Assembly (NCBI GenBank): GCA_008632985.1
Contig: QPGO01000037.1
Location: 248,001-312,000, forward strand
DNA from: Psammoneis japonica
Taxonomy: Eukaryota
Length of the DNA: 64,000 nucleotides
Reading direction: 5' to 3'
A program made the position numbers and the translations under genes. The notes below the pieces were generated by a model. That model saw nothing but the letters and a program-made list of their open reading frames with translations, did not search any database and had not been told where the DNA came from. Of this stretch, positions 49 through 64,000 are shown one piece after another; position 1 is the first letter of the stretch; each line of letters starts with the position of its first letter.

Positions 49-443
49 GGTGCAAAAGCGAGAGGTGAACAATATCTTTCGTTGTTGCTGTTGTTGGCTC
101 GAGAGAGAGGCTGTTGCTGACTGTGAGACATGTTTTTAGGGCCCTAGTAATTTGGAAATTGGAATGCTATGCAGAATTCGTTCGCGAACGTTCAGAATGG
201 GTTGACATTATTTGACATCGTCCTTCCGTTGATTGCATAGACTTCCTACCGTGGCGTGTACCGTATGTATGCAGGAAGTTCTTTGGAGACACTGCGCACG
301 ACTGACGGACTGATAGATGGACGGACGGGCGGGGCGGGCGGACTGGGCAGTCAGTTTTTTCCTGCTAGCTGCCTGCCTCTGCTGCCACTGGTAGACCTAG
401 CTGCTAGTAGCTAGCTAGTGGTAGAGCATGACAGTGAGAGTCA

Positions 444-1070
444 CAAGGTCCACCCTCGAAAACATGCTCTTTGTCTGTTTGCATCACCACAGCAGGAGAG
501 GGAGTGGACTGGTGTTTGGGGGGGAGCACGACACACAACACATGGCGAGCAAATGCAAGGGGTGTGTGTGTGTGTGTGGCAAAAAGCTGGAGCCACAGAG
601 GAACCTGAGTTTCCCTGAGCCCTGGCCTTTTGGTGTGGGAGATGGCACCTCAGCCCAAGGAGTGGGAGGGTGGGTGCTCAAGCTGTGCATGCTGTGGTGA
701 AAGCCGACTGCTGATCCAGACAACGACCCTCACAGTCGGCTTGTCCTTGTCTGTCCATCTGTTCTGTCATGTGGGGCATCTTCAGGCTGCTCTTTGCTCC
801 ACACTCAGCAAGCAAGCCAGCTGGCCTGCTCACCACTCCAACCTCCTCAACAAGGTCCACCCTCAAAAACATGCTCTCCATCTGTTTGCATCGCTGCAGC
901 AGAGAAGGAGCAGACCAGTGTTGGGGGGGAGGCCACACACTGGGGAAAGAACACATGACACACAGTGAGCAAATGCAAGGGGCATGTGTGGTGAAAAGCT
1001 GGAGCTGGAGAAACCTGAGCTCTCCCGCAACCCCAGGCCTTGGTGTGCAGGTGACAGTGCCTTGGCCATG
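444..1070 (+). repeat. Diverged direct repeat, ~220 bp copies at ~444-660 and ~851-1070
   Basis: caaggtccaccctcgaaaacatgctct...gagcaaatgcaagggg...aaaagctggagc recurs 407 bp later. Differences include CG/CA and TG/CA swaps. Confidence 0.8.
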
Positions 1071-2071
1071 AAGGTGCATGGGTGGCGGTTGTCAAAAAGG
1101 ACAAAAGACACAAAAAGTTTGCTCGTGACACTGGCAACCCTTTCAACCATTCCTCAGTGCATCCTTGTGGAAATCTGCAAGATGCAGAAGACCATGAGGA
1201 CAGAAGAAGAAGAAAAAGAAGAAGAAGAAGGGGCAGCAAAAAACAGGTGACAAACAGCATGAAAGAAAATGCTCCTGTTGCTGCCTTTGCCGTTGGCTGT
1301 TCAAGATTGCTGCAGATGAAAAGAAAAAATTTGCAAGATGATGACAAAAAAGACACAATTGAGAAGGAACCTTTCTGTGAATTTTTGCAAGAAAAAGACT
1401 GCTTTTTCATTTTGGATCCTCAGGATGAAATGCCAAAATGCAGACATGATGCTTTTGGCAGAAGACGCAATGACGTTGTGCTCTCTCACAGAGTCAAATG
1501 TGTGAGAGGAGAAGGAAGAAACTGTTTCTCTCTGTTGCTTTCACACTCAGATGTCTTGACACAACAGCCACAGTCAACACAACCACAGACAAAGTTGCAT
1601 CAGAAAACCCCCAAACAGACTGTGAGAAAGAAAAAAGGAAAGAAAGCACACTGATCAGGCAAGAAGATGCAAAAGAGAACAGTGGAAGAAGTGCAACCTG
1701 AATGGATCAGACTCACAAAGCCAAAGGATTGGATGCAAGCAGCTGGCTTTGTTGAATCACATGTTGGAATTGAGACACAACAGATGCATTAAAAGGCAGA
1801 AACAAAAGAACCAAACAATGTTTTTTTTTCACACTTTAATTTGGGTTGCTGCTTTTGGAGCTGTTGAGTTCTGCTTTGCAGTGCTCAAAAAACATGTGCT
1901 TTTTTGAATGAATCATTGAGTGCACAGAAAAACATTCCCGCGGGAGCAAGGAAACTGAATTTGAGGACATTTTCCATGGTCCAAAGTGTGGTGCAAAGGG
2001 CACTGCCATTTTGAAAAGCATTTTCATTTGGAGTGTTTCCAGGATTCCTGATTCCTCCATCAACACTGCTT

Positions 2072-2443
2072 TCAAGCCCAGCACCAAAAGCATGCATGTT
2101 TTCCATTGACACCACAGGTGGGGCAGCTCACACCTGACCACTTGTTCAAGCACTTGATGTTGCATTTGCTCAGGGCCAACTGCAAGTTGTCACCCCTTGA
2201 GCCTGCTGCAGTTGTCTTGTCAAAAGCCGCATTTTTGTTGTCAATGAATTTCCAACTTGGATGGAATCTGAGTCCTTGTCTGTTGGTGTGGCCATTGGTG
2301 GTCTGCCAACATTCCACAGTCAGATGCAAAGTTTTTCTCTTTTCTTTGACATCTTCCTTGAGATCATCAAAATTGTCATCATGTGCAAAGATCACCAGCA
2401 TTGCAGCAGATGCACATTCGTCAATCTCTGGGAACCAGCCCAT
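2072..2443 (-). pseudogene. Remnant of an unknown ORF downstream of pol in copia element A
   Basis: RQGLRFHP...AAGSRGDNLQLALSKCNI aligns by eye with RQGMRFHH...VAGLQGNNLQFASDRCAI located downstream of pol in copia element C (59.6-59.8 kb). Confidence 0.5.
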
Positions 2444-3019
2444 GACACATCACACAAACAGGTGCTCCATGAGCTCTGTTCTCTTCTTGTGCAGTTTGAA
2501 CCATCTTGGTTGGAGTTCATTCTTTAGTTCATTCCATGTTTCATGGATGTCAATGTTCTCATCTTCTGCTTCTTTGAGTGCCATCTGAAGGCAGTCCAAG
2601 GCTGACTTGCATCTCCTGGTTTCTTCATTGCTGACATGGATTCTCTGTCATGAACAAACTTGCAGCCTCCTTCTGCAGTTGTTGTCAGTGCATTCCTGGC
2701 CCACAGTTTAATGGCATCATCTCTTTGCCCAACCCATTGGTTGCTGCTTGTTGCTGTCATGTGAGCATGTCTCATTGGGTGGACGTTGCTTGTCACCCAT
2801 CTGAGCAGCTCAATCTTCATCCATTGTTCCTCCAAGCAGCATTGTGTTTTTGCATCACATCCAATTGCTGCCATCATTGTGAACTTTCAACTTCTCATCA
2901 AGTTGTGGCAAGCCACTCATTGAGGGCCTTTGCCTCATGCAGATCTTTCCCCCATGTGCACCAGGGATCTTTCACCAGACATCGCTGGACAGGACCCCAG
3001 CCTGACATGCTCACCAATT

Positions 3020-6000
3020 GGCACCCCATGATGGCTTGCTTGAATTTTTGGAACTTCTCTCCTGGCAACAGCTTGGTCATGAAAGTCTCCTGACATGTCA
3101 TTGGCAGGACAACATTGCACCCTCAGGTCGCCTTTCTTGATTTGGTCAGTTGCAAAGAAATGCCAAATGTCAAGGGTTCTGGAGTGCTTGCCCAAGCTCC
3201 TGGGCTGCAACCATTGGTCTTGAGCAAAATGGCGCTCTTGTTGTCTTGACACAGGATGTCATTGTCAATCTGATGCCCTTGATGCTCCATGAAGAGCTTG
3301 CTCTGCAACATCATGGTCATCACATCATCGACTCCTGCCAGCTCAGCTTCCATGCTGCTTGGGGTGCTCAGCTTCTTTCACTTCAAAACAGCTTGCACTG
3401 CTCCATTGCCCATGGTCATTGCCGCTCCAGCAGCATGGCTCTTGTTGAAATCTGGGTGCATCACAAAGGATGCATCTGCTTGCCACTTGATCACTTGGAG
3501 GTCTTTTGTGCTCAGAACAGTGGCTTCGTTTTGTGTCCGGTTCACACGCTTTTTAAACAATGGACCAGCTTCCCCCAATCCTTGTTGGTTGGTTCTCTGA
3601 CTCCTGTGCAGAGTGTGGTTGTTGTGGGATGAATGTGCATGTGGCCTCTTTTAGAAAGGAACAATCCCTTGGCCACCCATGCATGGAAAACTTGGGCTTT
3701 GACCACTTTTGGCAGCCTTGTGCTTCCCGTGTCAAACAGGTCCTCTCCAGCTGGTGTCACAGCAGCATCCGTGCTCTTGACAGCCTTGGGGAAATCATCA
3801 ATCATTTTTCCGGTGTGCTCTGTCATGTCTGTCAACACCTTGCCCCTCTTGCTGATTTCCAGGGTCATCCCCTGGCAGTCGTGCTTCTTTCCTCAAGTTG
3901 CAACAACCTTTCCATGGCTTCTGCATGTTCTGTTGAGCCAACTCAAATGACTCATCATTCACTTCTGGATTCTGGTGACTTGACAACAGATCATCCACAT
4001 GGAATCTGACCACCTGCTGTTTTCCATTGATGGTGTGATTGGCAATGCATGGGTCACATCATCCGTTGAAAACAAACCCAATCTTTTCCAGGTCCCTGCA
4101 GAGCTTCTTGCACCATGGCAGCCCTGTGACCAACATGCCATGTGTTGCTCTGACAACTTGTGTGCAAAGGACTCTCTTGCCCTTTTCCAAGACCATGCAC
4201 AGTCCACAAAGGTTGGGTTCAATGCTGACAAGCACATTGACCAGCACTCCTGCAATCTTCATCATGATCTGGTCCTTTCCATCTTCAACTTCTGGAACCT
4301 GAGTTTGGATGAATGTGTTGAGTGTTTTGGCACTCATGACATTGCATCCGTCTTCAGCATCAACATTGGCAGTCATGAACATTCCTTCCAATGATGTGGT
4401 TGGACTGGCTGACTCATCTTTGTCCAGCCATTCTCTGGTTGGTTTCCCATTGCAGACCATTTGTCCTTTGATCTGACCATCTCGTTTCTCCACAAGGAAC
4501 ATCAATGCACACATGGCCTTGGCACTTTCACTTGGAGTCATTTCTTTGACAGATGTTGGTGCAAAGCACACTCTGTTGTGAAGTTGTCCCATCTCCTTCT
4601 TGGAGGCATTGTGCCCCTTCTGCCTAAATGCTTTTAGGTCTTCATGCAGTGGGGGTGCCATTGGGCAAACAAAACACCCTTTCCAGTGTCTTAGAATCTG
4701 TCATTTGTCTTGCACATAAACTGTGCCAACACCATTGCCAATTCAAAATTGTGCTCAATGTTGTTCTCTGGATTTGGGCTCACATTTGTTTGCAGATGGT
4801 GGCAGTGTTCCAGTTTTGCAATCTCTTTCTGCTCTTCATCAGCCCTGGTCACTCATGCAAACCAGACCATTTTCTCATGCTTCTTGTGCCTTTGTGCAAA
4901 GGACTTTCTGGACCTTGTTGTCCTGTGGGTTGTGGCTCTTGCTTCTTCCTCCACTCTGTCTCTTTGGCCCCTTTGGCATCTTCATGAGATTTGTTCTTGT
5001 CTTGCATGTTGTCAACATCCACATGGTCATCTTCTTCATGGTGGTCACAGTTGTCATTGTTGGGCTCTGCACCCTCATCATGTGGGTTGGGACTGGACCT
5101 TTTGGCGGCTGGGATGTCATTGGCTTCTTTGTGTTCATTGTCTGAATCCATCTCATCACACAATCTTTGTCATTGCTGTCATTGCTTTCTTTGTCATTGT
5201 TTTTGTTGTTGTCTTTGTCATTTTCATTGTCATTGCTGTTTTTGTCACTGTCATTGTGCTCCACTCCTGCAGTCCAATCAGCATTGCAAGATTGCCTCCA
5301 CATTTGCTCACAAATTTAAAGTCTTTAGCCTTGAGCTTGTGTCACATGTTTGACTGCTCTGACATGCACATCGACTGGGGGCATGCAGGTGCATTTGCAG
5401 GGGTTAAAGAGCTTCCCTGCATGCAGGTTCATGGTGCAATGCCCTCCTTTTGGAGAGTCAAAACATGGGCATGGACACATGCTGTCAATGCTCCATGTTT
5501 CCATGGTGTTGGTGGGGCTGTTTTCTGTGCAGGAACAAAACAAATGTCCTGAAGGTAAACTCAAAATGTTGGTGCAGTCAAGGACTCAGTGTGTTGCACA
5601 GTGGTGTGTGGGCTGTGGGTGTTGGAGATGCCCTCCTTCTGTGAATGCATGTTTGCCATGGTTGTGTTCTTGACAACTGCATGTTTGCACATGAGCTTGG
5701 GCATGGCTTTGCAAGGTGGGTGGTGCACAGCAGCCTTGGCTCCTTTCTTTAACAGTTTTGATGCTGCGTTCAACCTCCGGTGCATGATCACTTGTGTTCA
5801 CTGGCAACAGCTCATGGTTCATCCCATCAGCCACTTCAGCATGGCCTTGAGCTTGGGGTCACATTCAACAAAAAATTGTTCTTGAAGATTGCTTTGTTGT
5901 GTTGCTGCAGCACCATGTCCAGCAACTTGTGCAAGTCTGCACACTCCTTGGATTTTAGCCTCACACTCGATTGATGCTTGATGGTCTTGTTGACAGTGTG

Positions 6001-7905
6001 CGGCACCTCAATGCTGCATGCTTCCACAATGTCAATGCACAGGGTCATGCCTTCCCTTTGCTTGTCATGTGTCTTTTGGGTGACATTGTGCCATCATGTT
6101 GTTTCTCACATGGGGACAAGGTGCTTGTTTGGTCTTGCCTTTTGGCATGTCAACAGGTGGCCCCCAAATGTCCACCATCCCATCCATGTCCTCTGGCATG
6201 ATGGACAGATTTGTCACCTGATTGGAATGCAGGAATTGTTTGAAATCTCTGACACTGAGCATTTTGGCCTTGCAGCACAGCTGCAGCACCAACTCAGTGT
6301 TCACCACCTCCTGGCTTGGTGCAAATGTGCACAATCTGATGTCATTTGCCTTAAAAACTGCGACTTGTTTGCCAGCTTTCTTGTCTGGTGGCTGGAGCTC
6401 ATCTGCCACTCAGTTGTTGTGCATCATGCAATGCTTGGCCTTCAAATCCTTTAAGCTTGGGACATTTGCTGTTGCATGCTTGGATCCCAACTTCATGTCA
6501 CTCCATCCTGGCATGGCACAACCCTTGTCCAGTGTGTCCACTCCTGTGTTCATGGACAGGTCAATCTTCTTGGTCTTCACTGGTCACACGTTGTGTGCCA
6601 ATCTCCAGCATGCTGCCACACTGAGGGCAGAAACATTGTCTGGAATGATCTCATTGGTCTCAATGCCCACCTTGGACTGGCTCATGCTTGTCTCTGGCCA
6701 TTTGCTGACCAGCTGCAACCTGTGCCCAGTGTTCCTTTGCTTTGGGTCAAATGGGTTCATCTTGTCAATCTGGCAGTGTCGACGCTCACATTGCTGTCCA
6801 CCAAAGAGTGGTCTCCACTGCCATCCCTCATTTGCACATGACTCTGTCCCCATGTGCCCAGGTTTCTTCCAGTCTTCTTGTGCCAATCTTTGGCAGCTGC
6901 CTTGTCTTCATGTTGGCACTCCAGGGACTCGTGACCCTCTTTGCCCTCTTTGCCGCAACAGCAGCACATTGTTCTGCCCTTGCTCTCAGTCTTCTCTGTG
7001 TGTGACTCTGGCTCTTGTTTTTGTTGTCATTCTTGTCCTTGCTGCTCTTGTCATGATGGCCAGGATTCTTTGGGTTGTTTCACTTCTGTTTGTTGTCTTG
7101 CTCATGGTTGAGCAAGACACATGTTGTCCTGTCTAAGTCCTTGGGGCATGTGTCATTCCCCAGACTGTGGTCTCTCATGAAGCTCTTCTTCAGAGTCTTG
7201 CAGCAATGGTTGTCACTGTTCTTGATGAACAGGCACATTGTCTGGGCCTCAAATGCTGTCTTCTTCAGCTCAGCTTGCTTGGTGCTGTTGCTTTCCTTGT
7301 GCTCCTTGGTGTTCTCAATGAACCCGTTTAGCATCTTGCCACCCAGGCCATCTCTTGTGGAGTCTTGTTGGTTCTTAAATCTTGACAGGTCATCCAAAAT
7401 GGACTCATTTTCTTGTTGCCTCACCTGCAGCATGTTCTTCAGGGATTTGGTCAATGCATGGGATGGATGTCAACCTTGCATTGAATGGAACATCAGGGAA
7501 TGGATGAGTTTTGACAACTCATTTGGATTGTCCCTGATTTTGTCTAAGCTTGGGTCACCCATGACCCTGTTCCTCATGTGGTTCATGCAGCAGTCATCCA
7601 TGATCAAAGCAAATGCCTTTGATTTGTTTTCATCAAAATGTTTCAGTTTTGCTTGGCAATCTTTGTGTTTGGCATGGAATTTGAACTCCAGCTTTTTGTC
7701 CTTGTGCTCCTTTTTCTTCAGGTCTCTCTCACATGAGTCTGTGTTCTCCTTGGGTGTGGTTTCTTGGCCTCAAAACCAAGGCACTTCATGTCCTCCAGTG
7801 ATCTTGCCATGCATTTGCCCTGTTCAAATTCCTTCTGCATGCATCTGCAGATCTTTCTCTTGACATCTTTGCACTTTGCATGTTGCATTGCATGTGTTGC
7901 TGTCC
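3020..7905 (-). mobile_element. Degenerate Ty1/copia (CoDi-like) LTR retrotransposon A: gag, Zn knuckle, integrase, RT, RNase H
   Basis: gag (FIKNSD...DHSLGNDTCPKDL, 7080-7454), knuckle CCCCGKE..GHESLEC (~6910-6970), integrase HAPEVERSIKTVKER (~5750), RT FLVEKRDGQIKG..VCNG and FHVDDLLSSH, RNase H WQADASF..HPDF / EAELAGVDD / QDNKSAILL / FMTKLLPGEKF. IN-RT-RH order is copia. Many frameshifts; LTRs not identified. Confidence 0.93.
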
Positions 7906-10900
7906 AGAGCCTTGTGGATGATGAGGACATGTCCTTCCAATTCACCAAATTTGAGACCTGCAATGATGTGCAGTTTCTCCTTGGTGGTGGCTTCAAGGCA
8001 GGCATTGCCCATGTCAGTTGCCCACGTCTCTGGCTCATTGAGTTTGGCTGGGAAGATCATCAGTCACAGACCATGGAGAGACACCACTCCAAAGCAGACA
8101 CTGTCAACTGGAATGTTGGCAAGGTGTGTCCATTGGCAAGAAGTCAAGCTTTGTGCCGGCCATCATGTTTGACAAATCATGCACAAGGTGCACCCAGATC
8201 CTTTTGTGTCCTGTTGGAGCACCAGAATCCTTGCAGTGTCCACAATCATGGAAGACCTTGCACTCATCAAGCTCAGACATCTCAAGATCTATCGCATCTC
8301 TCCACTTGCAGCTGCCATTGTGCTCATCAAGGGCCAGTGCATGCTTGCAGTCTTGGGGCACCTTGCATCCACACTTGCAGTGTGGTGCAGAATGAGCATT
8401 GTTTGGCTTGGTTGCCCATGTGGAACAGCTTCTTCTGGTGTCATGCTGTGGTGCAAAAGAGTTTCCATCCCTCATCGTTGAGGAGGCTGTTCTCACATGC
8501 ACAGATGGCACAAGTGATGGGGTCATCCTTGGGAATGATGGTGAGGGGCTTGGATGTGATCTCCCCACTCTCCCATTCAAGCATGACATTGCAGCTTGAG
8601 CCTTTCCAAGAGGGGTCATGAGGTCTCAATGGTCCTTCACATCAGACAATGTGGCAGAACTTCCAGAGAGTGGTGTCCTTGTCTTCTTGCTCTGTGTGAT
8701 GAATGACATCATTGCATGCCAGGATTTCCTCATGTTTGTCATTGTTGACTGAGCAAACAAACTTGGTGAGTTCCAGGTTGTTGCCAATTTTCCAATTGTG
8801 GTCCTCAACAGCTTTGACAATGTGTGCTCTGCAGTGCTGTCCATCCTCTTGTGGCTTCATGAGGAAGGGACATCCTGCAATGTCCTTGGGATTGAAGACT
8901 GGCATCTTGGGCATTCTGGTCTCCTCCCCATCTGGCAAATCTGCAGTGTCATGTCAGGATTTGATGATGGGTGCAGGTCTCTCCCCATTGGGAGGATCAA
9001 GTTGCAAATTGCAATTTGAGGGGTTGCAGGCAGCAGATTGGACATTGGACTGACAGAGAATCTTTTCTGAGTGTCATGAGAAAGAATCTTGAAGGTCATT
9101 TGGTGGCCCACATGCTCGGCAATGCCAACAAAGTGGCCACACAGCTTGCGGGATCTGGGTGGCCAGCCCAAATTGTCAAGGTGACAGCACATGGGTTCCC
9201 ACCATTGAAAGCAAAGGATGGGGCTAATGTCAGGAGTCAGCACTTTGGTGGGAGCATGCCAGCAAAGCTTGGCAGATGCTGTGTGGTTGAGCAAGAAGCA
9301 CACATGCATCAGAGCAAGCAAGCAACCAGGCATGGGCTGGGGAGCCAAAGCAATCCATGATGGTGTTGGCCATGTTCTTTAAAGTCTGGTGTCATTGTTC
9401 AGCAAAGTTCTGGTGCCATTGGTGGGGCTCACTCTGCCAGCCAGAGATGAAGATGGCACAGATGATGCCAAGTGCCTTGTTGCTGATCTCAACCTGTGCA
9501 TGATTGCTGGTGAGCTTTGAGGGAGCACCACAGTTGTGGATGTTGTCTTCAAGTGTGTTGACAAAATCCTTGTCTGTCTTGGTGCTGCACACATTGGTGA
9601 CAAGGGATTCCATGCCAACAAAAAAAGCTGTGTGCTGATGGCTCAGAGTTGATGGTGGGAGTTTCAGAGTGCACCGTGTCAGTGGCAATGGGTTTGTTGC
9701 ATCAGTGAGCATTGAGAGCCGGATTGGGTGAATTGCATGCTTTCTTCAGATGCGTGGCAGCAGGCATGTGGGTGCACTGTGTCATGCAGTTGAAGGTGCA
9801 GCAAACACTGTCTTTTGGAAGGAAGCCAAAACAGGGGCAAAGAGACTCACAGTCAGGATCCTTGGGGGTGACATCATGCTCATGACACTCACAGAAGAAA
9901 TCAGACATCAGGAAGATGTGATCCTTGAGAATGGAGTCCACAAACATCATGTTGTTTGCAACATGACAATGGCAACAGTTGCCAAACTTGTCAAAGAGGC
10001 TGGTGACAGGATCATCCTGAAGGTGAGACACAGCATCATGCTGCTTGTCATTGTTGGTCTGCTGGTGGTTGAGCACAGATGGATCCCAGGTGTCATTGCC
10101 AGTGAGCATGACATGGGGCAGTGTGCCCCACTCATCATTGGTGTGTGGGCACATGGCAATGCATGGCAGGCCATGTTTGATGTCAATGGGGATGATGCAG
10201 CTGTCAATGGTTGCAATGCATTGCAGGCCATTGGGAACATTGAGCAACCGGTCATTGACATCATGCTTGTGCCACTCAAGTTGGCTGCAAGAGTGTGTGG
10301 TCTTGCCTTTGCCAGTGTGAGCACACTGTTTGAAGGATGGTGATGGCAGGTCCATGCCATGTGTTGATGACACCACCAGCAGTGACAACAGCAATGTCAG
10401 TCAACTTGTGGTTGTCAATGCCTTGGACATCAACTTGGCAGTCAGTGCACACAATGACATGAAGAACATTGTCACCAGCAATTCTGCCATTTGCACCGTG
10501 ATCCACCAGAGCACCCACGTGCATCAAGTTGTGGGCAGAGGCAGAGCAGATGATGCTGTGATTGTCAACACAATGACGAGTGCAGCCATTGACCTCAATG
10601 TCAGTTGTGGCAGCAGGTGAGGGTGTTGGAGCAGTGGGTTTTGCACCAGAGCAGGGGGGGGGGGGGGGGGATTTGCATGGCAAAAGGAGACATTGGGTGT
10701 CACCAGGTGGCAGAGGCTTGTACGTTGTAAGGTGTGACAGGATGGGGTCATCATCCACAGCATCAGGTGCAGCTGTGGTGCACTGGATGGTCCAAGAGTT
10801 GTTGGTGTGAGGTCATGAGAGTTGGCAGACAAGTTGACAATGCCATCACTCCCCAGGTGAAGGTCATGAAGGTTGACAGCTGCTGAGTCATGGCACTTGC

Positions 10901-12250: not shown

Positions 12251-13589
12251 TGCAAATCACAAGCTGCTGGGCTGTGCTGTCCCTTTTGCAGTCAAGTGCC
12301 AATCTTTCCATCTGGTCCACAGAGTTGTGCCAGCACATCCGAGCCTGTGGCTGGTGGCACTTTGGGGGTCACTTGCAAGCAAAGCAATGGATTGTTGTTT
12401 TGCATTGGTTGGATGACCCAATCAGATGCAAAGGATGAACAAACAAGTGTGGGAAAGTGCACCTTCAACACCAATGCACACCACAATCATGAGGCTGCTT
12501 CTTCCTCTCACTGTCTTCCTTGCGCAGATCTTGCAGAACTGTGGAAGACCAGCAGTCCGGGGCAGACAAGGAGGAGTGGTGGACTCAGTGTGTGTGTGGT
12601 GAGGCCAGAGTTGAGGTGCAGAGCATGGGTGTGTGCAACGTGTGCAGGGCAGAGGAGCCTGAGCTGTGGCTTGCCTGAGCAGGGCAGGTTGGTTTGTCTG
12701 TCAACCTGGATCATGAACCAAGGTGGGGAATTCAGAACCTCAGATGTTGGAAAATGCCAAAATTCCTGATTGAACATTGTCCGTTGAATGGGGACACATG
12801 CAATGATGAAGAACCCTGAACAGAGTGGATCAGAATGTGCTGATTTAATCCAAGTGTTCAGCGATGAGGAAGTTGGGCACATGCTTTCACCACTGCAATG
12901 CATGTCATCAAAAAATCACCAATGATGATGGTGAATGCTCAGTAGATGAACAATGAGCAAGACTGTTGATCTGACAGAAATTGAAGAAGAAATGGGTGGA
13001 AGAAAACAACAACACTCCTGTCTGCTGTCCAAACAGCAGATGGCACTTTGTGCAGAGACCATCACTGAGCTGACAGACGTCAGTCATAAATTTGGGCCAT
13101 TGTTGTCATTCTTGCACGGCGAGTGACTCGAGAGCAAAACTGCATTGTGCAAAAGCACCATGCAGAACTAAGAGCACACAAAACTGCATGTGACAAACTA
13201 AAACAGTGCACAACAAATTGCTCACAAACAGGCAAAATCCTGCTCTAGACTGATCCTGTCAGCAGGTGTCAATGATCTTGTGGACTTCTGCTGAGTCAAT
13301 GTGCACTCAACAAGTGCCAATGACTCTTTGGAGTGAGTGTTGAACCAGCAAGTCAATGTCACCAAAAGGGAATCCTGTTGGGCTTTCTGTACCACTTGTT
13401 GCACTTGCCCTGGTTGCTGTGTCTGCTGTGGCTTGCATCAACATTGTGTGTGGAACCTGCATCAGCAAGATTGTTGGATGTTGACAGATGCCACTTGTTG
13501 TTGTTAAACCAGATCATTTTACTCCAAAGAGTGAGCACAAAAAGTCAGCAAGTTTGCAGCCAATGACAAAGGACATTCTTCAAAGGACA

Positions 13590-19930: not shown

Positions 19931-20044
19931 CCTAAACTAGAATAATACAGTGCTAATAAACAATTGCTTTGTGTTGGATTTAGTTTATGGATGGACACTA
20001 CACTTTTTCTCCTGAGGACTAATGACATTCTTTTTAATACAAAT

Positions 20045-33587: not shown

Positions 33588-33625
33588 ACACCCCCGTGAG
33601 CCAACTAACAACACCCTCTTAATCG

Positions 33626-53498: not shown

Positions 53499-54307
53499 CG
53501 GTGCTTGGCGATGAGAACCCGACCACATCATGGCAGTTATCAAGCAACCAATCAACTTGGCGAGATAACACCGAGAGAGGGCCACTACTCTAGGTTGGCG
53601 AAGTCGTCATGAAATCGATAAGTGAAAACGCGACAAGCGCTTTCGAAAAATTGTCTTCGAGAGAATCAATCAACGAGCAACGAGGATATATTTTGTCAAT
53701 AAATGTTTGCCAACGTTTATGGTAAAGGGCAAATACACTCGCGGTTTTTTCAAAGACAGTGTCTCCCAAGAAGTCGATCGCGGAATTGTTAACAGAAACA
53801 ATAGCACCGATAAATGTTGGCCACAAGCAAGGATATTCTCAACATATATTTATTGCTGATAGAGACAAAGACTTCCAAGACCTCGACGCAGAAAGCCAAG
53901 CAACCAATGCCCAATCACCTCGTGAGGAGGCACCTTCGGTGCTTGGCGATGAGAACCCGACCACATCGTGGCAATTGCCGTCGAAGACTTATCATTTAAG
54001 GAGTGGGCAGGGGAGGGCAACTGGTGCCAGTCACATTGTTTATTGAGATATAACACCGAGAGAGGCCACTAGGTTGGCAAAGTCGTCATGAAATCGATAA
54101 GTGAAAACGCGACAAGCGCTTTCGAACAATTGTCTTCGAGAGAATGAATCAACGATGATAAAATTTTGTCAATAAATGTTTGCCAACGTTTATGGTAAAG
54201 GGCAAATACTCTCGCGGTTTTTTCAAAGACAGTGTCTCCCAAGAAGTCGATCGCGGAATTGTTAACAGAAACAAATGGCACCAATAAATGTTGGCCAACA
54301 TTTATTG
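53499..54307 (+). repeat. Recent tandem duplication (~53499-53823 and ~53937-54297) ending in a perfect 26-bp palindrome
   Basis: Near-identical blocks cggtgcttggcgatgagaacccgaccacatc and aagtcgtcatgaaatcgataagtg...gttaacagaaaca. caataaatgttggccaacatttattg at 54282-54307. Confidence 0.92.
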
Positions 54308-54419
54308 TTGGTCTCCTTAAATAGGATGAACTGTGAACCCTAAAAGCAAAGTTGTGGGAAGGATCAAAATCCTCTGGTACCATAAAAAAGCGAAACCAAC
54401 AAACGAAATCAGTGAAACA

Positions 54420-56440
54420 ATGAAACTCTTTAAGCAAAACCGGTTGTGTGGCTGGATCCTTGCGGCTTCAGTCCTTCTTCGAGCCTGTGAGATGGTTGAG
54501 GTTCTTGCTGGGACGGACGAGCCATGGAACGATGAGGTAAGTGCCTCCAGTCGTCTTGTATCGACCGAACCACAAGAACAAAACTTTGGCACGGAAGCTA
54601 ATCTTGTCCCGGTTTCTCTATAACCTCGTAGGCTACGACGCAAGAAGCCAGCGATTCCGATTCACGGGGCCTTCAACCCGTATCAGATGATGGGGTCCAA
54701 GGAGGCGCATTTGGAACAGATGACAACAACGAACTCGAGAAGAAGCCGCTCTCTACAGGGGACTTCCATCTACGAGCAAGTGGTTCCAACGCAAGACGTC
54801 TTCCAAATCTATCAGATCGGGACCAAGGAGGCACGTTTGGAACAGATGATACCAACGATCCAGAGAAAAAGCCGCTCTCAACGGTGAGTTTTCGTCTACG
54901 AGATTTGCTTGCACAACGTTCACGTCGAATTCTTCCTCATCACGCATCGGTTTCCGCTTTTGACCACCAGCATGTTACTCCGTACGACGACCCAGACGTG
55001 GAGGGGGAGGAACAGGACCCTTCCGTTGTAGCACGACGTCTTGGCCCGGGAATGACCGTGGTGTCCAGGACGTCGTTGCCGTCCCTGTCTTATCGGAACC
55101 CACCTTATCGAACTCTTGTGCAAGTGCAAGGTGACTACGCGTTTCTCGGCATTTGGGGGTCCAACAAAGTGCTGATCTACGACATTTCGGATCCGTCTAT
55201 TCCCAGACATGTTGCGTCTGTCGACACGTGCTTTGGGCGCAACATTCATGACATTTGGGTTTCTGGCACTCATCTGTGGGCATCACACCGATTTGGTGGA
55301 CTCACAATGATTGACATATCAAATGCCAGATATCCAGTGACCCCACCAAAATGCTTTTCGGAAACATACAACCACAGGGGTCTGATCTCCAAGGGAAACT
55401 ACTTGTTCTACTCCGGACGATATCACTTCTCAATCTACGAGATAACGGGTGATACGCTGCGTCTGGCTTCACGTGCCCAGGGCATTCCCGGGGATGGCTG
55501 GGAGATGGCTGTGACCGAAAATTATGCATACGTGGTGACCGATAATCATCTTGAAGGCTCCGTCTACATATACGATGTATCAAACAAGGCAGCTCCTTCT
55601 CGGGTTGGGATTCTCAGTCCACCAAGCGGTACATATCCTCCGGCATTTAATATGATTGTCTCCCGTGACCAGACGAGACTTTATGTAGGAGTTCGGAATG
55701 CATCGGGTTATGGCGAAGGATTTGCTATCTACGACATTGCCGGTGCAAATGCTGCGAACCCCCGACTCCTTGGGCGTGTCTCCAACCACCTGTTTGCATT
55801 TAATTTGGCACTTGATGACGAGAACAAAATCCTTTACGTCAGGGATCACTGGACTAGTGCAAAAATCAGTGCCTACGACGTGCAAGATGCCACATCGCCA
55901 CGATTGATCGATTCATATGACTTCCCACAGACCACTTGGGACGCAGGACATGGCCGAACCGAGTACCAACTAAGCGGCGTGTGGTACTCTAACGGATATG
56001 TCTACTTTGTCAATGGAAATGATCTCGTCATTCTCCGAGCTCCCACGTCAAGGGTCTGCAAAGGATATGAGTTGTTCAACGAGGTGACCAAGACGCCACT
56101 GACTGGGCCTTGCTATTCGTACGACAGGCTTTACCAGGATTTGTGCCCGCCCGTCAACACGGGGGTTGCCAACCCTCAGTATCTTCCTCCTGGCGGCAAC
56201 AGCCCTACCTGTCCTGGCTATTGCTGCGGAAATTGGGGCTCAGGCGGGACTTGTCCCATCTCGTGGGAAAATAGCTGGCGGCACGCGTTCCCAACAGTGA
56301 TCGTTCCGGTATGCGACGGCAAGGACAAGCCTGGTGGATGTGAGGTTGTGTTGAAGGGTGGCCGGCCTTCCAAGTCATGTTCTGTCCGGGAAGGCAACTG
56401 GATCTTTCCATCTATCCGTGCTGGACTGGCAACGACTTGA
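54420..56440 (+). CDS. Secreted LVIVD-repeat beta-propeller protein with Cys-rich tail; exon 1 54420-54536, intron 54537-54631
   Basis: Signal-like N-terminus, in-frame GTAAGT..TAG intron, repeats VLIYDISDPSIP, LTMIDISNARYP, VYIYDVSNKAAP, AYDVQDATSPRL. A further in-frame intron at 54884-54970 is possible. Confidence 0.85.
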
Positions 56441-57099
56441 CGAGTGAGGTTCTCCTGGGAGTGAACACAAGGCGACTTTGTGCCTTCATGCTGGCGATTG
56501 CGCGCGTGGTCGCGGTACCACTTTCTATGGCCCCGGGTCCGTTCGATTCCCTGGTCTCTCTGAGCTACGCGTCGAATGTGCTTAGGACTGCCTTACATGT
56601 GGAATCGCCCTCGCCAGAAAGTTGAGATGATATACACATTTAATGGTTGATGCATGAAAAATCTTAGAAGACAGGATGTCACGGGTGATGAGATGTTTGC
56701 CGGCAAGAATGCCCACTCGTTCCTCCTTGCAGGTGTTCACATTTATAGAGTTGTCACATCTTAGTAGATCATGTGTTCAACGCAAAGCAATCATTCGCGA
56801 AGGACATTAGTCTCTCTAGAGAGCAGCCCTTTCTCAATGCTTTGTAGTCTCTAGCCGCCCATCGCCATCAATCCAATTCACCCTGCCGCATGAATCCTGA
56901 GAGAGATGTCACCGACCATCAACACACACATCACAAAGCACTTTTCACGACATGAGTTCACGTGTGCCGCGGAAGCACGAGACAAGGAGGCCTGTGGCTG
57001 GCTCCAAGTTCATGAAAAACGAAGAGGAAAAGGGAAGAGAAAAAGAAAGATCACATTTGTGCTGACACTGAGCTCAAAAAATCCATTGCTTTGTTAAAC

Positions 57100-58850
57100 T
57101 CTGTTGACTGTTGATTGCAATGCTTCAACACCCATGGCATCTCCAGCATTTCAAAAGTGTTGGATGTGCACACTTGATGTGTTTTGGTGGCTTTCCCATT
57201 CTGTGCCAGTCCAGTCACTGCATGAATTTGGCTGCCTTTGGCTGGCACAGAGGTGTGGGCTCTGGTGTTTTTCACCTCATGCCAGAAAAGGCAAGGCAGG
57301 ACATTGTGCTTGTCCCTGCTGAGTTGCCGCTCAATGTGAAAAGCTTGGGGTTGCAGACAAAGAAGAAGGTGTGATGAAGATGGGCTGTCACTTTGTTTTG
57401 CTGAGCATGCCATTGATGATGCATCAAATGGCTGGCAGCTGGTGGCACCAAACTTGGTGTTGCAAAAGGAGCGGCATTGGGCACAGTCAAAGGTGTGTCA
57501 GATGGGCCATTGCTTGGCTCTGCCCAGGAGATGCCCTTTTCAGACTGCCAGGCATTGGATGCACTGCCAGCACTGCATTGTTGCCCACTGTGTGCCACAC
57601 TTGTCATGCAAAAATGACAGAGTGCAAGATCTCCTGACATGCACTCCAGCTCCAGGGGGTGGGACCTTGCAGTGCTGGACTGCAACATTGATGCATCTTG
57701 TCAGGCACCACATGTCATGCACATGCACACATTTCTGCATGACTTTGGTCACACCACGCATCATTTTGCAGTGCAGTTGTTGGGTGATCTGCACTCAGCA
57801 TTAACTTTTGACTTTTTTGTGGCTGCAATGCTGCAGAATTGTGCACACATTTGCAAAAAGAGCGCAGTTGTGAAGAGGTGTAATTGTGCTGCAAACTTGG
57901 CCACTCTCACTCAGATTTTGAAGAGAAACACATTCATTGCCCAAGGTCCAAACTGCAGAACTTGCACACTGAATTCTGTGGGCCCGTGTCACATGGAGTT
58001 CTGCCCATGGCTGGAATGTGTCTCCTGCATTAGGAGCTCTCCCCACCCACCAAAGGCAGAAGCTCAGAACAAATGACAAGAGTGCATCAGTGCTCTTTTT
58101 TTGAAAACTGACAATGACAGAACCCCCAACAACAACAGCCTTTGGCAAGGATGTCATGATGAGTGCATCAAGCTCCCAATGAAAAGAAACTTTGGGCCCA
58201 TTTGAGCTCCAGCTCACTGCACTTGCTGCACTGACTATGTGTGATTTCTTTGGATTTTTTGAATCTGGGTGTGGTCCATGTGCAGCACTGTGATGTTCTG
58301 TCTGGCTCTTGTGGCACAGCACTGATGAAACCTGCACGCGGGGGTGTGTTTAACATGTGCAAAAGCCAAGTTGCTGAGCTGCTCCATTGGCTGCTTTTGC
58401 TGAATTTTGAGTGGTGAGGATGCCCCCCACACCACATTTTGTGGGTGCCTTTCCCTGCAAGATGTGTCTCTTCCACCAAGCTTGTCAATGCATCACAACC
58501 TCCACCACTCAAGGAAATCATGGAAAAGTGTGATTTGGGGTGGGGTGTGCAACATCCTTGGCCACACCAGGTGGAAAAACATCTTTTGATGTTGTGGAGC
58601 TGCCACTTGCTGCCCCCTGTGCATGGGAACATGAAAGACACTAATCTGGTCAAGGTGCTGGGTTGCAAACTTTGCCAGCAGGAAAGGGGGAAGCTGCAGA
58701 CTTGCTTGTGGTCATGCCAAAAAGTTGCCACTCAGACTGTCACAAAAAACATGGTGCCAGTGTTGTTGAACCAGCAAGTAAATGTCAACAAAAGGGGGCC
58801 CCACTGGGCGTCCTGTGCCACTTGGCATGCTTGCCTCAGCTGCTTGTGGC
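57100..58850 (+). repeat. Unknown repeated coding-like element, copy 2 (homologous to ~42.25-43.9 kb)
   Basis: Collinear blocks shared with copy 1. Confidence 0.75.
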
Positions 58851-59054
58851 AGCTGTGGGTTGCCCAAAAGTTGTCAATGCAAAAACTTCAAACCGGCAAC
58901 ACAACAGATTCCCAGTGGCACCAAATGATGAAATCATGCAAATCAAATGATGTGATTCACTCCACCAAAGAGTGAGATGAGCTGGCTGAAAGGTGAGAGA
59001 GAGATTGGGGTGATGATGAAATCTTGGTTGCAAAGAGTTGCCGAGTGAGCCATG

Positions 59055-59830
59055 TCAGGAGTCAAGTGTCCTTCCTTTGGTCCATCTAGATTCCTCATGA
59101 TTTCCCATGATCCAGGTGCTCCAATGCAACACTCCTGCTGCTTGAATTGATGCAATGCAGTGATGCTTTGCATCCAGGGGAGACTGATCCCTGTGGCATG
59201 TTGGCACAGCATTGCCATTCATGTTGGTTGCCTTGGCATTGATGCCCTGTAAGTCACGTGCAATGCCTTGCACACACTCCACAAAATGCTCCATGCAACT
59301 GTGGCAAGTCTTCTCTCTTGCAACTTTGCTTTGTGGACCAACTTCCTGCCCTTGATCCCACCATTGATTGTCTCAGGAGTGAACTTAAAGAACTTGATTT
59401 TGCAGCAAGCCCACCAACTTTTGGGATGTGCACGATCAATGACACGTGTGGAAGAATGAAGCCAACTTTTCAGTGTCACAGACAATGCCATTGGTGCCTT
59501 GCAACAGACTGCCTTGACTTGCTTCACCTCTGGGGAGGTGAGTGTGGTGTGGAGGTTCATGAAGGGACCACAAACCCCGAGTGCACCCGTGCCATTTGTG
59601 GGGCAACTGGCCATCAACAGCCTCTTCAAATTGTCAATGGCACATCTGTCTGAGGCAAACTGCAAGTTGTTGCCCTGCAATCCTGCAACACTCATCTTTC
59701 ACCATGTTTGTTGTGATTGTCATGTTTTCCAAAGAAATGATGGAATCTCATGCCTTGCCTTCAGGCTTGACACCCAACAAAATGCCAAAATTCCTTGCTG
59801 GTCTTGTGCACCTCCCCACCATGTGATTTG
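59055..59830 (-). pseudogene. Remnant of the unknown ORF downstream of pol in copia element C
   Basis: Homologous to 2072-2443 (aactgcaagttgt and gatggaatct blocks; GNNLQFA versus GDNLQLA). Confidence 0.5.
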
Positions 59831-60399
59831 ATTTCAGACAACACATTTGAGACCATTGGGGAGGGAGAACAATGGTGCAGTGGCAGACATGTGTCCATCA
59901 GGTTGTGCCTCTTCATTCACAGCTCATGCTGTGTTTCTGAACATTGCAAACTTTCTCTTGCACACTGACAAGCACTTCTGCCCCTTTCAACCTCCAGCAT
60001 TAATGAGCACACATCCTCTGTTGCATTGCAGCAGAGGCACCACAGATCTTGAGTCAGGGTGAAGTGCCTGTTCTGGGTCCACTGAGTCAACTCTTCTTCT
60101 GCTGTGTGGAGGCCCTTGTCTTGGAATCTCTTTTCATTCCTTGACTCTGTTCTTCCAGTCCTGCAAACATGTCCCAACAGTGCACAGCCAGTGCTGCATT
60201 GTTGTGCTGCTGTGTGGCACATTGCACTCATTGTTGCTGTGCTTGTTCACAACCAGCAATGTCATGGCTCTCTTCTGAAAAAAGTTGTGGCTGGTTGAGC
60301 CATGTGGCTCATGACCTTTTCCAGGTCTTTTGCCCACATGCATCAGAGTTCTCATCTGATGCAACAAATGGGGAACACTCCTGCAAACTTGAGGTTGAC

Positions 60400-63300
60400 A
60401 GCCCATGATGACTTGTTCAAACTTCTGAAACAGCTTCTTGCCCTGCAATGGCTTGGTCATGAAGTCTCCAAACACCAAGCATGTCAGCAGCATGACAATG
60501 CTGTGCTCTGAAAACTGGCCTTCTGATCAGCAACAATGACAAAATGACAAATGTCAGGCACTTTGGACTGCTTTTTGGCAGTCCTGTCTCATTGGTTTTC
60601 AACAGTGTGTGGTGCTCTTGTTGTCATGGTCACAACTCCTCCTGTGTAGCTTGCAAAATCTGGGTGCACAGTGAATGATGCGTCTGCATGTGCCACTTGA
60701 TTGCTTGGAGGTCTCCTTTGCACTCAGCACAGTGACTTTGTTTTGTGACCACCTCAAATGCTTGAGACACAATGGACTGGCATTGACAGGCTCTCTGACT
60801 CATGTGCACAGCACTGTGACAGTGGGGCACACATCCACACAACCTCTCTCAGGCATGAACAGCCCATTGGCCATCCACATGTGGAGCATCTTTGCTTTGT
60901 CAGTTGGCAATGTGCTGGTGCCACTGGCATCAAACAGGTTCTTTCCGGCTGGCATCATGGCAGCATCCACACTCTTTTGATCTCTTCTGGGAACTGGTTG
61001 ATCATCTTGCAAATGCAGCCAGTCATGTCAACCTTCACCTTGCCCTTGTGGCTGAAGTCCAGGGGCATGCCAAGGGAGTCATGCTTCTTCCCTCATGTTG
61101 GAGCAACTTTGCCATTGCTCCCACACACATCATTTTAGCCAGCTTGAAAATTTGCAGTTTGCTTTTGGGTTCTTGTGGCTTGACAACAGGTCATCCACAT
61201 GGAAGCACATGGTGTGCTGCTTGATGTTTGCCATTTGACTGGCAATGTGTGGACTGCACAGGCCAAATTTGAGCCTCAAAACCTCATCTTTGCAAAGTCT
61301 TTGCAAAGTTGCTTGGCACTTGCACCACAGTGGAGCTGTGTGACCAACATGATGCCATGTGCAGCTCCAATCACTTTGACACAAAGGGCTCTCTTCCCCT
61401 TTTCCATGACCACATGCAGTCTGCACAGGTTGGGATCAATGCTCACTGGCATCTTGACCAATGCTCCTGCAATCTTCACCATGATCCAGTCTTTGCCTTC
61501 CTCAGGCTCCAGGATCAAGGGCTGCACAAATGTGCTCAGAACATTGGCACTGCGTTCCTCAGCATCAACAACATCTGTTGATGGTGTTCCTTCTGATGAT
61601 GGCATCAGGTGGGCTAACTCAACCTTGTCTGGCCATTCTCTGGTTGGCTCCCCATTGCAAACCACTGGCCGTTTTGTGCGACAGTCTTGTTTCTCTGTTG
61701 GGAACATCAAGGCAACCACAACCTTGGTCCTCTCAGTCAGAGTCATGCCCTTGACTGTGATGCTGGTGCAAAGCACACTCAGTCATGCAGCTCTTCAGCC
61801 TCTTTCTCTGACTCATCATCATGCCCCTTCTGGCCAAGTGTTTTTGGGCCTTCATGAAGTGAACACTGTTGGGCAAAAGAAGTGCCATTTCCTGATTGGA
61901 GTCAGTGGTCAAACCTGCACATGAATTGTGCTGGCACCATTGCTGTTTTTGCATCACACTCAACGTCATCCTTTGGGTCAGGACTCACATTTGTTCACAA
62001 AAATGATGGAAGTGTTTGGCTTTGTTTTGCTCTTGTTCCAGTTCAATGATGTCTGCCACTCCTGCAAACTGAGCTTTTGTTTCTCTGTGTTCATGTGGTT
62101 TGATGTTGAAGAATGCAGCACTCTTCTTTGCCCCCACCAAATGTGGCTCTTGCCTGTTCCTCCAATCTTTCTCCTTCCTGTCCCATCTCTTGTCTTCCTG
62201 GGATTTGTTGCTGTCTTTTTCAGACTCTTTGTCTTCTTCACAATGTCTGCAACATTCTTCCTTGACTTCTTGGCACTGTTGGTGGTGGGACTGGATCTTT
62301 TGTCAGCCGGTGTCTGGCTTGCTTCTTCACATTCATCACATGAGTCAGGTTTGTCTTTGCAGTCTTCATCTTCTGACTTGGTTTTGCAGCTGGCATTGTT
62401 GGGCTCAGTTTTGTTTTTGTCTTTGTTTTTGCTGTCATTTTTGACTTTTGTTGCTTTTGTTGTTGACCACCCCTGCAGTCCAGACAGCATCACCCAGATT
62501 GTCTTGACATTTGCCCATGAATTTGAGCTCTTTGATGCCTTGTGATGTGGCCATCTTCTCAATGGCTCTCATGTGTTCATGTCAGTCAAGGGCACACCAG
62601 CGCACTTGTGGGGATTCAAAAGCTTGCCCGAGTGCAGGTTCATGACTCAGTGGACACCCTTGGGCAAATCAAAATGTGGTTGCAGGTAGATGCTTTCAAT
62701 GCCATGTGCATCCATGGTGTTCATTGGGTTGTTTTCAACATGAGATGGCACAAAGTCCCCAAAACAGAGCTCAAAGTGTTTGTTGCAGGCAAGGTTCCTT
62801 CATTGCATGTCAGTGAAAAAACTTTGGACATGACAGTTGTGTTCTTGAACACAGCATGCTTGCACATCAGTTTGGGTGTCATCTTGTGTGGTGGGTTGCA
62901 CACAATGGCTTCAGTTTGTTCCTTGCTGGTCTGCATGCTCCCCTCAACTTTGGGAACATGGTCACTTGTGTTTGTGGACACCAGCTCTAGATTTGTGCCA
63001 TCTGCATCTTCTGTCAGCATGGCCTTGATCTCAGGATCACACTCAACAAAGTTGATCTTGAAAAGAGCTGTGTTGCGCTGTTGGAGAATCATTGTCCAGT
63101 GCATCATAAAAATGTCAGCACACTTCTTGGACTTCAGTCTCACTCTCTTGATTGGCACTTGATGGTCTTAACTGTTGTGCACAGCAGCTCAGTGCTGCAT
63201 GCTTTCACAGTGTCAATGCAGAGGATCACACCTTCTCTCTGCATCTTGCAGGTCTCAGGTGCTGGCATGGCTGTGATGTTGTTCCTCTCATGGGATGATG

Positions 63301-64000
63301 TGCACATTTGGTCTTGTCTTTTAGCATGTCTGTTGGTGGACCCCAAATGGCTGCCATCCTGTCCACATCTTAAAGTGCAATGGACCTTGTTTGAATGCAA
63401 AAACAGCTTGAAATCTATCACATTTGGTGCTCCAGCTATGAAGCACAGCCTGAGTGCTTGCTCAGCATTCAATGCCTCCCTCTTGGTGTGGCCTGTGGAA
63501 CAAGCTTCACTGTCAAAACACCACAGCTCCAGATGCACTCCTGTGCTCTTTGTTGCTCTCCTTCTGCTGCTTCTTCTTCTTTGACAGCATGCTCGCCGGC
63601 AACTCACTCTCTTGAAGATCTTTTGCATGGTCATAAAACTTCTGGCTTGGCATGGGGGTGTGCATCCTGGTGTCATTCACTTTGAACACCCCAACTTGCT
63701 TGCCAGTTTTCTTGTCTGATGGTTGAAACTCATCCACCACTCGGTTGTCACATGTCATGCAGAACTTGCTCTTCATGTCCTTTAAACTGAAGATGTTTGC
63801 CTTGCCATTGCATTCTGGATGCAAGCTTCACATCCCCCCATCCAGACATGGCACAGTTTTTGTCTGAAGCACCTGCTCCTGCACTTGTGGACAGAACAAT
63901 CTTGGTCTTTGCCAGTCACACATTGTGCACCACTCTCAGGCTTGCCACCATGCCAAGGGCAGAGCCATTGTCAAGGATGATTTCATCTGCCTTGATGCCC
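60400..64000 (-). mobile_element. Degenerate Ty1/copia element C, related to element A; continues beyond the window
   Basis: GDFMTKPLQGKK.FQKF..VIMG (RNase H end), FHVDDLLSSH and KIAGALV...EKGKRALCVKV (RT), HVPKVEGSMQTSKE (integrase), and DEFQPSDKKTGKQVGVFK matching element A's DELQPPDKKAGKQVAVFK. Confidence 0.92.

Follow-up and report, generated by a model that had tools for sequence, protein, structure and literature searches.

In the stretch of 64,000 nucleotides (nt) of Psammoneis japonica DNA analyzed here (contig QPGO01000037.1, positions 248,001 to 312,000; hereafter the window), three blocks carrying decayed mobile elements have lost almost all of their TpA dinucleotides, which have given way to TpG or CpA, and the two gene islands between them have kept theirs. 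This TpA-erasing hypermutation is almost certainly a real phenomenon. Comparison of the block sequences with one another and with outgroup proteins shows a process of TpA-specific transitions that is strand-symmetric, limited to domains, active after insertion, and close to saturation. The best explanation of the data as a whole, to which a probability of about 0.5 is assigned, is a post-insertion conversion of TpA within silenced mobile-element blocks by adenine deamination. The coordinates and composition of the blocks, islands, and elements are listed in Table 1.

The three blocks pooled (430-19600, 39501-53360, and 56861-64000; 40,171 nt) contain 140 TAs, or 3.5/kb, and in the pooled gene islands, of which 23,041 nt were counted, there are 918, or 39.8/kb, together with 55.9 CG/kb. 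The observed/expected (o/e) ratio of TA varied from 0.02 to 0.08 by block and from 0.56 to 0.59 by island. When counted per kilobase, TA ranged from 0 to 10/kb (o/e 0.00-0.14) over 1001-19000, 40001-53000, and 57001-64000, and from 25 to 62/kb (o/e 0.45-0.80) in the gene islands. The pooled and per-kilobase counts agree with the initial annotation of this DNA, which reported a near-absence of TA in 0.43-19.6, 39.5-53.36, and 56.86-64 kb and abundant TA between these regions; judging from the positions of the flanking TAs, its block coordinates were good to about 100-300 nt. At the left edge of block 1, a TA is found at 422 and the next one at 1790. The left edge of block 2 is marked by TAs at 39479, 39657, and 40057, its right edge by TAs at 52139 and 53363, and the left edge of block 3 by TAs at 56852 and 57095. 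The block edges are sharp, within about 300 nt, and the adjacent genes and promoters are spared.

The o/e ratios of TG and CA reached 1.57-1.99 by block versus 1.12-1.19 in the islands. The sum of the pyrimidine-purine steps (TA, CG, TG, and CA) was steady at 235-247/kb in all seven segments of blocks and islands, and the missing TA and CG are therefore accounted for by the extra TG and CA. Blocks and islands have similar GC contents, 0.48 and 0.47-0.50, respectively. In six-frame translation, Tyr made up 0.08% of residues in the blocks versus 2.29% in the islands. The triplets TAA and TAG, which occur at 19.3/kb and 14.7/kb in the islands, were reduced to only 3.7/kb and 1.7/kb in the blocks, and it is owing to this depletion that the blocks contain many long stop-free frames. 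Of the 2000 codons in the copia frame 2601-8600 on the minus strand, 1 codes for Tyr, 95 code for Cys, and 107 for His. All 11 peptide motifs that had been quoted in the initial annotation as carrying Cys or His at Tyr positions were found at the places given for them.

The direction of the change was determined from conserved protein columns. For the copia-like elements, 136 outgroup reverse transcriptase (RT) proteins were compared with the window using tblastn, 14 low-Tyr homologues having been dropped from 150, and a column was kept if it had 3 or more aligned outgroups with an agreement of 60% or more among them. Two outgroups, both agreeing, were used for the element at 46.6-49.4 kb, and four outgroups for the host BRO1 gene, which served as the control. 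The 32 conserved-Tyr columns of the copia copies now hold Cys (14), His (8), Ser (3), Tyr (1), and, in one column apiece, six further residues, with 444 of 709 columns of other residues (except Arg) retained. In the element at 46.6-49.4 kb, the 21 conserved-Tyr columns include His (6), Cys (4), and Tyr (2), and other residues were retained in 283 of 548 columns. The control retained Tyr in 8 of 14 columns and other residues in 244 of 395. For the open reading frames (ORFs) of the mobile elements taken together, Tyr was retained in 3 of 53 columns and replaced by Cys or His in 32 of 53; according to the Fisher test, this retention differs from that of the host gene (p = 6e-5) and from that of other residues (p = 3e-15). 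Replacement by Cys (18) and by His (14) indicates that the two strands are about equally affected, and the low numbers of Phe (3) and Ser (4) indicate that transversions are few.

The sequence context was estimated from single transitions inferred from amino-acid changes, with detectable retained sites as the denominator and the copia copies counted separately. A>G changes were detected at 40 of 46 TpA sites versus 23 of 449 sites elsewhere (ApA 15/135, CpA 2/133, and GpA 6/181; p = 4e-36), and T>C changes at 30 of 37 TpA sites versus 10 of 321 elsewhere (TpT 5/121, TpC 5/89, and TpG 0/111; p = 2e-28). At C:G pairs, C>T was recorded at 25 of 48 CpG sites versus 13 of 282 elsewhere (CpT 6/71, CpA 1/110, and CpC 6/101), and G>A at 38 of 74 CpG sites versus 26 of 453 elsewhere (TpG 2/163, ApG 14/127, and GpG 10/163). 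The host gene had no TpA contrast, the changes at TpA amounting to 3/13 and 5/22. The Tyr columns and the context counts support the earlier proposal of an A:T to G:C process that acts at TpA on either strand and across unrelated element classes.

Most blocks are also CG-poor (CG o/e 0.09-0.17). The region of 45-52 kb has a TA o/e of 0.08, yet its CG o/e is 0.56, which means that about half of the CG was kept. Within the ORF at 46.6-49.4 kb, TpA was changed at 21 of 27 sites versus 16 of 66 for CpG (p = 4e-6), and first-order arithmetic on these counts gives a loss of TpA roughly five times faster than CpG decay. CG persists in places from which TA has already disappeared at three edges (about 19.2-19.6, 39.5-39.84, and 56.86-57.02 kb). 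In the edge zones 19200-19930, 39480-39840, and 56860-57020, TA is absent or rare at a normal CG density, and the TA-free zone overreaches the CG-depleted one by about 150-400 nt. CpG decay by deamination of 5-methylcytosine (5mC) thus appears to be a second, separate process that leaves the TA loss unexplained. The persistence of CG at 45-52 kb and at the three edges, where TA has been lost, is in line with the earlier statement that 5mC deamination explains the loss of CpG only.

The authenticity of the TA-free sequence was evaluated using the public run X1, represented by Logan contigs built from exact 31-mers, which has 81% of the sampled words of 15001-24000. The X1 contigs were compared with window positions 8001-28000. 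They match TA-free DNA with 0 differences over 2449 nt (13356-15804) and 766 nt (12214-12979), and the X1 word depth was 29-38 over exact TA-free stretches versus 52-62 over genes. A check against accurate reads had been suggested in the initial annotation; in X1, whose library type is unrecorded, the TA-free sequence is reproduced by the contigs, the support consisting of k-mer depth and exact contigs. For another run of the same sample (X2), 13 of 30 bins are covered, starting at 19.3 kb; its contigs begin at 19966, have a very uneven depth, and are confined to the gene island, with none over the TA-free block. This pattern resembles a transcriptome; if this guess at the kind of run is right, the TA-free block may be silent.

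The two copia copies share 64% nt identity (2166 of 3386 aligned), with 746 transitions and 474 transversions, and are 82-93% identical if scored by purine versus pyrimidine only. Among the aligned pyrimidine-purine steps, 152 were TG/CA-discordant and 391 concordant. If conversion of the TA and CG sites to TG or CA was random in each copy, the 152 discordant steps imply about 300 converted sites, or about 9% of steps. The islands have the same share of TA and CG combined (39.8 + 55.9/kb), and both copies would therefore have arrived with a normal composition. The comparison indicates that, once inserted, each copy was converted on its own. For the RT, metagenome relatives were represented by the best 80 of 564 confirmed matches, of which 79 were fetched; this selection favors intact copies, and Tyr was required by one of the two patterns used to find them. 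The TA o/e was 0.40-1.09 in 79 of 79 relatives, which rules out a native TA-free composition of the element family and answers the question, raised earlier, of whether intact copies are equally TA-free: relatives of the copia-like element carry normal TA. Several of these relatives (L029, L039, L064, L049, and others) combine a CG o/e of 0.18-0.36 with normal TA (o/e 0.47-0.77), and in their hosts CpG decay apparently affects the copia-like family without TpA erasure.

Relative to the window, X1 contigs with a similarity of 95-99% carry adjacent TG/CA swaps at 5 sites within 15.8-19.5 kb, as well as 2 single TA/TG-or-CA and 6 single CG/TG-or-CA differences (counts obtained from 40 of 106 difference rows). 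Such swaps would be expected if a TA or CG common to two lineages had been converted late and separately in each, and they may be signs of recent activity. The TA-free segments 8001-9334, 11336-12002, and 12670-13336 had a summed X1 word depth of 1070-2990 versus about 40-70 elsewhere. They are represented by many copies, at least 95% alike, at 20-60 times the single-copy depth. Independent conversion would leave copies about 90% alike, and the copies that are at least 95% alike therefore multiplied after the loss of TA. TA-free sequences may thus amplify beyond the reach of the mutator, as in a possible arms race. Among the 150 listed representatives of the RT homologues, 14 had less than 1% Tyr (median 3.0%) and raised Cys and His (P0079, P0101, P0022, P0027, P0068, P0084, P0137, P0146, P0150, P0118, and four more). 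The 10 of them that were looked up originated from ENA or Logan assemblies, and the same Tyr erosion seems to be present in other organisms or strains.

The 140 TAs that survive in the blocks are non-random in their tetranucleotide context. TTAA accounts for 29% of block TAs versus 5.6% of island TAs and CTAA/TTAG for 24% versus 8%, and the corresponding values are 0.7% versus 8.1% for ATAT and 0.7% versus 14.9% for ATAC/GTAT. The base 5' of TA, counted per strand, was T in 149, C in 68, G in 40, and A in 23 cases in the blocks, and T in 444, C in 338, G in 522, and A in 531 cases in the islands (purine versus pyrimidine, blocks versus islands: odds ratio 0.22, p = 2e-28). From these counts, 5'-R-T-A seems to be preferred to 5'-Y-T-A (R, purine; Y, pyrimidine). 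Background mutation that regenerates TA may contribute to the residual TAs.

According to the favored explanation, an element would insert with normal TA, and the block would represent silenced mobile-element DNA. A candidate enzyme would be drawn to chromatin that is silenced or foreign and would deaminate the adenine at 5'-TA-3' to hypoxanthine in DNA, which would be read as G at replication and give rise to TpG or CpA. Either strand of the palindromic TpA would be struck about equally and each copy independently. The outcome would be a mutational genome defense, with all Tyr codons removed and many Leu, Ile, and Val codons rewritten. Taken by itself, adenine deamination in DNA as the chemistry falls a little short of an even chance; it is favored because of the near-pure transitions, the specificity for a single dinucleotide, and the de novo signature in the alga Bigelowiella natans described below. 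By analogy, the best candidate enzyme would be an ADAT2/TadA-like or other nucleic-acid deaminase. In the available text of PMC10354150, amphioxus ADAT2 is reported to deaminate DNA.

Several points weigh against this explanation. TpA is its own complement, and A>G and T>C are therefore indistinguishable, so that adenine deamination and thymine modification are inseparable by sequence. The targeting cue could be repetitiveness, foreignness, chromatin state, or small RNA, all of which are candidates. The restriction to repeats claimed in the initial annotation holds insofar as the TA loss is confined to mobile-element blocks, but judged by its 31-mers in run X1, most of the TA-free DNA is single-copy. 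In the context test, the neighboring base was taken from the present window sequence, and the outgroups for the element at 46.6-49.4 kb were 2 proteins only. The mild A>G excess at ApA (15/135) would suit a polymerase with a WA motif (W, A or T); it may instead reflect tolerated Lys/Arg and Asn/Ser exchanges. Finally, X1, with its library type not on record, may stem from the assembled sample itself.

The last point would favor a sequencing or assembly artefact, in which a modified base at TpA was mis-called. Such an artefact is scarcely credible, since the exact-31-mer contigs of X1 are identical to the window over up to 2449 nt at a depth (38-62) similar to that of genes, and a Tyr content below 1% is also seen in other assemblies, in 14 of the 150 listed RT homologues. 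A strand-specific mis-call also predicts all-CA versus all-TG strands, but Cys (TG) and His (CA) codons are interleaved within a few codons. The main rival to adenine deamination, itself unlikely, is a thymine modification, in which a TET/JBP-type dioxygenase would oxidize T at TpA to 5-hydroxymethyluracil (5hmU) and further forms, and G mispairing or mis-repair would lead to T>C. Oxidized thymine may cause T>C, and the palindromic target would give the same TG/CA outcome; to our knowledge, no TET/JBP-type enzyme or thymine modification is known in diatoms. In dinoflagellates, which, like stramenopiles, belong to the SAR (Stramenopiles, Alveolates, and Rhizaria) lineage, a TET/JBP homologue makes 5hmU, which is enriched on transposable elements and silences them, according to the available text of PMC11572971. 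Older work, as summarized in the accessible parts of PMC11572971 and PMC11071213, found T to be preferentially replaced in TA and TC dinucleotides of dinoflagellates, and both the marking of transposable elements and this preference speak for thymine modification. The base-resolution map of Breviolum is nevertheless described without sequence preference in the available text of PMC11071213, and dinoflagellate genomes with very high 5hmU have not been reported to be TA-free.

Error-prone patch repair, in which the repeated repair of T:G mismatches arising from 5mC deamination of methylated elements would recruit a Pol eta-like polymerase that mis-copies WA and produces A>G at TA, would account for the coincidence of TA and CG losses in most blocks and for the mild increase of A>G at ApA (15/135 versus 2/133 at CpA and 6/181 at GpA). 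It is nonetheless quite improbable. TpA was struck about 8 times as often as ApA (87% versus 11%), and transitions prevail among the Tyr replacements (Cys/His 32 versus Phe/Ser 7); Pol eta yields many transversions at A and mutates A at both TA and AA. TA has also gone where CG is half kept (45-52 kb), and its loss exceeds the CG-depleted zone at three edges. Editing before integration, by an ADAR-like or other editor acting on retroelement RNA or cDNA, would deliver copies that arrive already mutated, and per-copy editing would likewise produce independent outcomes in the two copia copies. Against this very improbable scenario, entire blocks of 19, 14, and 7 kb are TA-free, including a non-retroelement ORF, a propeller array, and unclassified DNA, and both strands are equally affected. 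Moreover, near-identical X1 contigs differ by TG/CA swaps at the same sites, which implies a change in place. Biased gene conversion, being without dinucleotide specificity, was ruled out by the extreme TpA context bias.

The same TpA signature has been described in a 2026 preprint on B. natans (Mettrop et al., bioRxiv 10.64898/2026.01.13.699255), and the process can no longer be called undescribed, as it was in the initial annotation. The following data on B. natans are limited to the portion of the preprint that was available. The mutation-accumulation lines yielded 231 single-nucleotide mutations within two integrated viral regions; 230 of these belonged to the A>G or T>C classes, every one of the 230 at a TpA. 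The targets are integrated giant-virus and virophage DNA, and an ADAT2-like candidate was proposed. Genome windows poor in TpA and rich in CpA and TpG form 124 clusters, the depletion being mild (Rho TpA 0.45 in the viral region, with a 5% cut-off of 0.43), and that portion of the text makes no mention of CpG, diatoms, or stramenopiles. Both systems are characterized by A>G/T>C transitions at TpA to TpG or CpA that are limited to foreign or mobile DNA. Unlike B. natans, a rhizarian alga, the host here is a diatom-like stramenopile; the depletion is near saturation, with an o/e of 0.02-0.08 over 40 kb of the 64 kb window, and affects transposon blocks with CpG decay superimposed. The mutations of B. 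natans were observed de novo, whereas here they were inferred from outgroups. In the full-text literature, no other report was found in diatoms or fungi, nor any of a genome defense by adenine deamination, subscription journals and preprint supplements being outside the scope of the search.

Repeat-induced point mutation (RIP) of ascomycete fungi is similar in being an in-place dinucleotide transition hypermutation of repeated or mobile DNA, with sharp limits and inactivated elements. However, RIP turns C to T mainly at CpA and makes TpA, while TpA is destroyed here, the GC content is not lowered, C>T at CpA amounts to 1/110, and the host is not fungal. Fungal RIP was ruled out on the grounds that TpA was removed and not created, the GC content is unchanged, C>T at CpA is rare, and the host genes are diatom-like; the TA depletion of the blocks conforms to the earlier remark that RIP would create TpA and not remove it. 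Deamination of 5mC also funnels a palindromic pyrimidine-purine step into TG or CA and co-occurs in most blocks, but TpA removal is beyond its reach. The AID/APOBEC and ADAR enzymes of animals, which edit viruses and retroelements, likewise restrict mobile nucleic acids by mutation with a dinucleotide preference; the deaminase basis of the present case is a presumed one. APOBEC converts C to U on single-stranded cDNA and ADAR acts on double-stranded RNA, while the targets here are A:T pairs of resident genomic DNA in all element classes. Dinoflagellate 5hmU shares with the present case the SAR lineage and a T-containing context in transposable elements, as far as the available text of PMC11572971 goes. 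There it is an epigenetic mark with no mutational consequence reported in that text, while here there are mutations, known from sequence alone.

Table 1. Blocks, gene islands, and elements of the window and the data on which they are based.
Feature	Coordinates	Strand	Composition, content, or basis
TA-free block 1	430..19600		63 TA (o/e 0.05), 113 CG (o/e 0.10), TG o/e 1.78, CA o/e 1.99
Degenerate Ty1/copia-like retroelement, copy 1	2997..7589	-	RT and RNase H at 2997-4700, upstream polyprotein parts to 7589; tblastn, long homologous polyproteins
Gene island 1	19601..39500		TA o/e 0.56, CG o/e 1.01; genes: DUF4419, Kelch + U-box, MFS, FAD-binding, fatty acid (FA) hydroxylase, CMAS-like, BRO1/ALIX
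TA-free block 2	39501..53360		TA o/e 0.03 (39.5-45 kb), 0.08 (45-52 kb), 0.02 (52-53.4 kb); CG o/e 0.13 (39.5-45 kb), 0.56 (45-52 kb), 0.17 (52-53.4 kb)
Decayed tandem array of beta-propeller-like repeats, period about 147 nt	40270..41640	-	Purine/pyrimidine self-alignment and translation
Large decayed ORF, about 930 codons, unclassified, possibly Plavaka-like	46593..49371	-	tblastn
Gene island 2, LVIVD-repeat protein	53361..56860		TA o/e 0.59, CG o/e 1.02
TA-free block 3	56861..64000		25 TA (o/e 0.05), 37 CG (o/e 0.09); continues past the window end
Copia-like retroelement, copy 2	60199..64000	-	tblastn, self-BLAST, purine/pyrimidine self-alignment

Remnants of copia-like and other elements were recognized in part of the block sequence, and apart from the propeller array, the rest of the block DNA is unclassified. 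Among 60 block ORFs with a length of 150 aa or more, Pfam revealed only SAND and Plavaka, both sub-threshold. The copia RT ORF of the window had no Pfam match at E<0.01, although its homologues with an E value up to 0.001 number 2751. Three of three intact RT homologues (P0082, P0128, and P0012) matched RVT_2, two of them above the cut-off and P0012 with 30.5 versus 31.6 bits. Neither ordinary self-BLAST nor purine/pyrimidine self-alignment revealed long terminal repeats for the copia copies. The large ORF of block 2 showed 35-37% identity to P0005 and P0006, proteins of about 1100 aa, for which no Pfam family was found. Its earlier assignment to Plavaka was not sustained, as the PF18759 match reached 17.3 bits versus a cut-off of 26.3 and the homologues are without a Pfam domain. 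The repeats of the propeller array read 'DGKL(C/H)FSA...G.ELWVHN' and are TA-free without a recognizable transposon domain; no similarity was detected between this array and the intact Kelch/U-box gene at 21470-22708. Judging from the array, the TpA process may cover whatever sits within a block.

The host ORFs are long and intron-free (896, 622, and 602 aa). The best match of the BRO1/ALIX ORF was a transcriptome protein of Asterionellopsis glacialis (50% identity), and that of the DUF4419 ORF was from Helicotheca tamesis (55% identity over 98% of the length). The best named relatives of these two host genes are thus diatom proteins, and the long intron-free ORFs are also compatible with such a host, whereas the FAD-binding ORF was of no taxonomic use. 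The host is therefore taken to be a diatom or a close relative and not a fungus, and the fungal framing of the initial annotation was abandoned. Short tandem or near-tandem duplications with 75-91% identity were detected inside or at the edge of the islands (53562-54297, 19303-19789, 32950-33578, and 34878-35246), one set being located directly upstream of the LVIVD-repeat gene and extending into its start.

With the window, TpA erasure, first described in 2026, is extended to a second lineage, in what is by far its most extreme form. The known mutational genome defenses, namely RIP, APOBEC, and passive 5mC decay, are of the C-to-T type. For an A:T-to-G:C system at TpA there was a single earlier report, from a rhizarian alga, in which the signature is weak at the level of genome composition; here, a near-saturated signature is found in an ecologically dominant lineage and on ordinary transposons. 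The loss of TpA distorts annotation, since element proteins fall below the Pfam thresholds and the loss of TAA and TAG leads to long spurious ORFs in all frames. Low TA together with high TG and CA provides a simple genome-wide marker of silenced foreign DNA. For base-editor engineers, a DNA adenine deaminase that naturally targets TpA would be of interest, if one exists, and the question of a natural defensive DNA adenine editor is now testable in a group with genetic tools. Tentatively, and with the odds rather against it, a defense by DNA base editing, dedicated to this purpose and guided by chromatin or RNA, may exist in diatoms. It would erase TpA from all invading elements faster than CpG decays, could be homologous to the Bigelowiella system and, as such, would be an ancient, SAR-wide or wider immunity by DNA adenine deamination that is saturated here.

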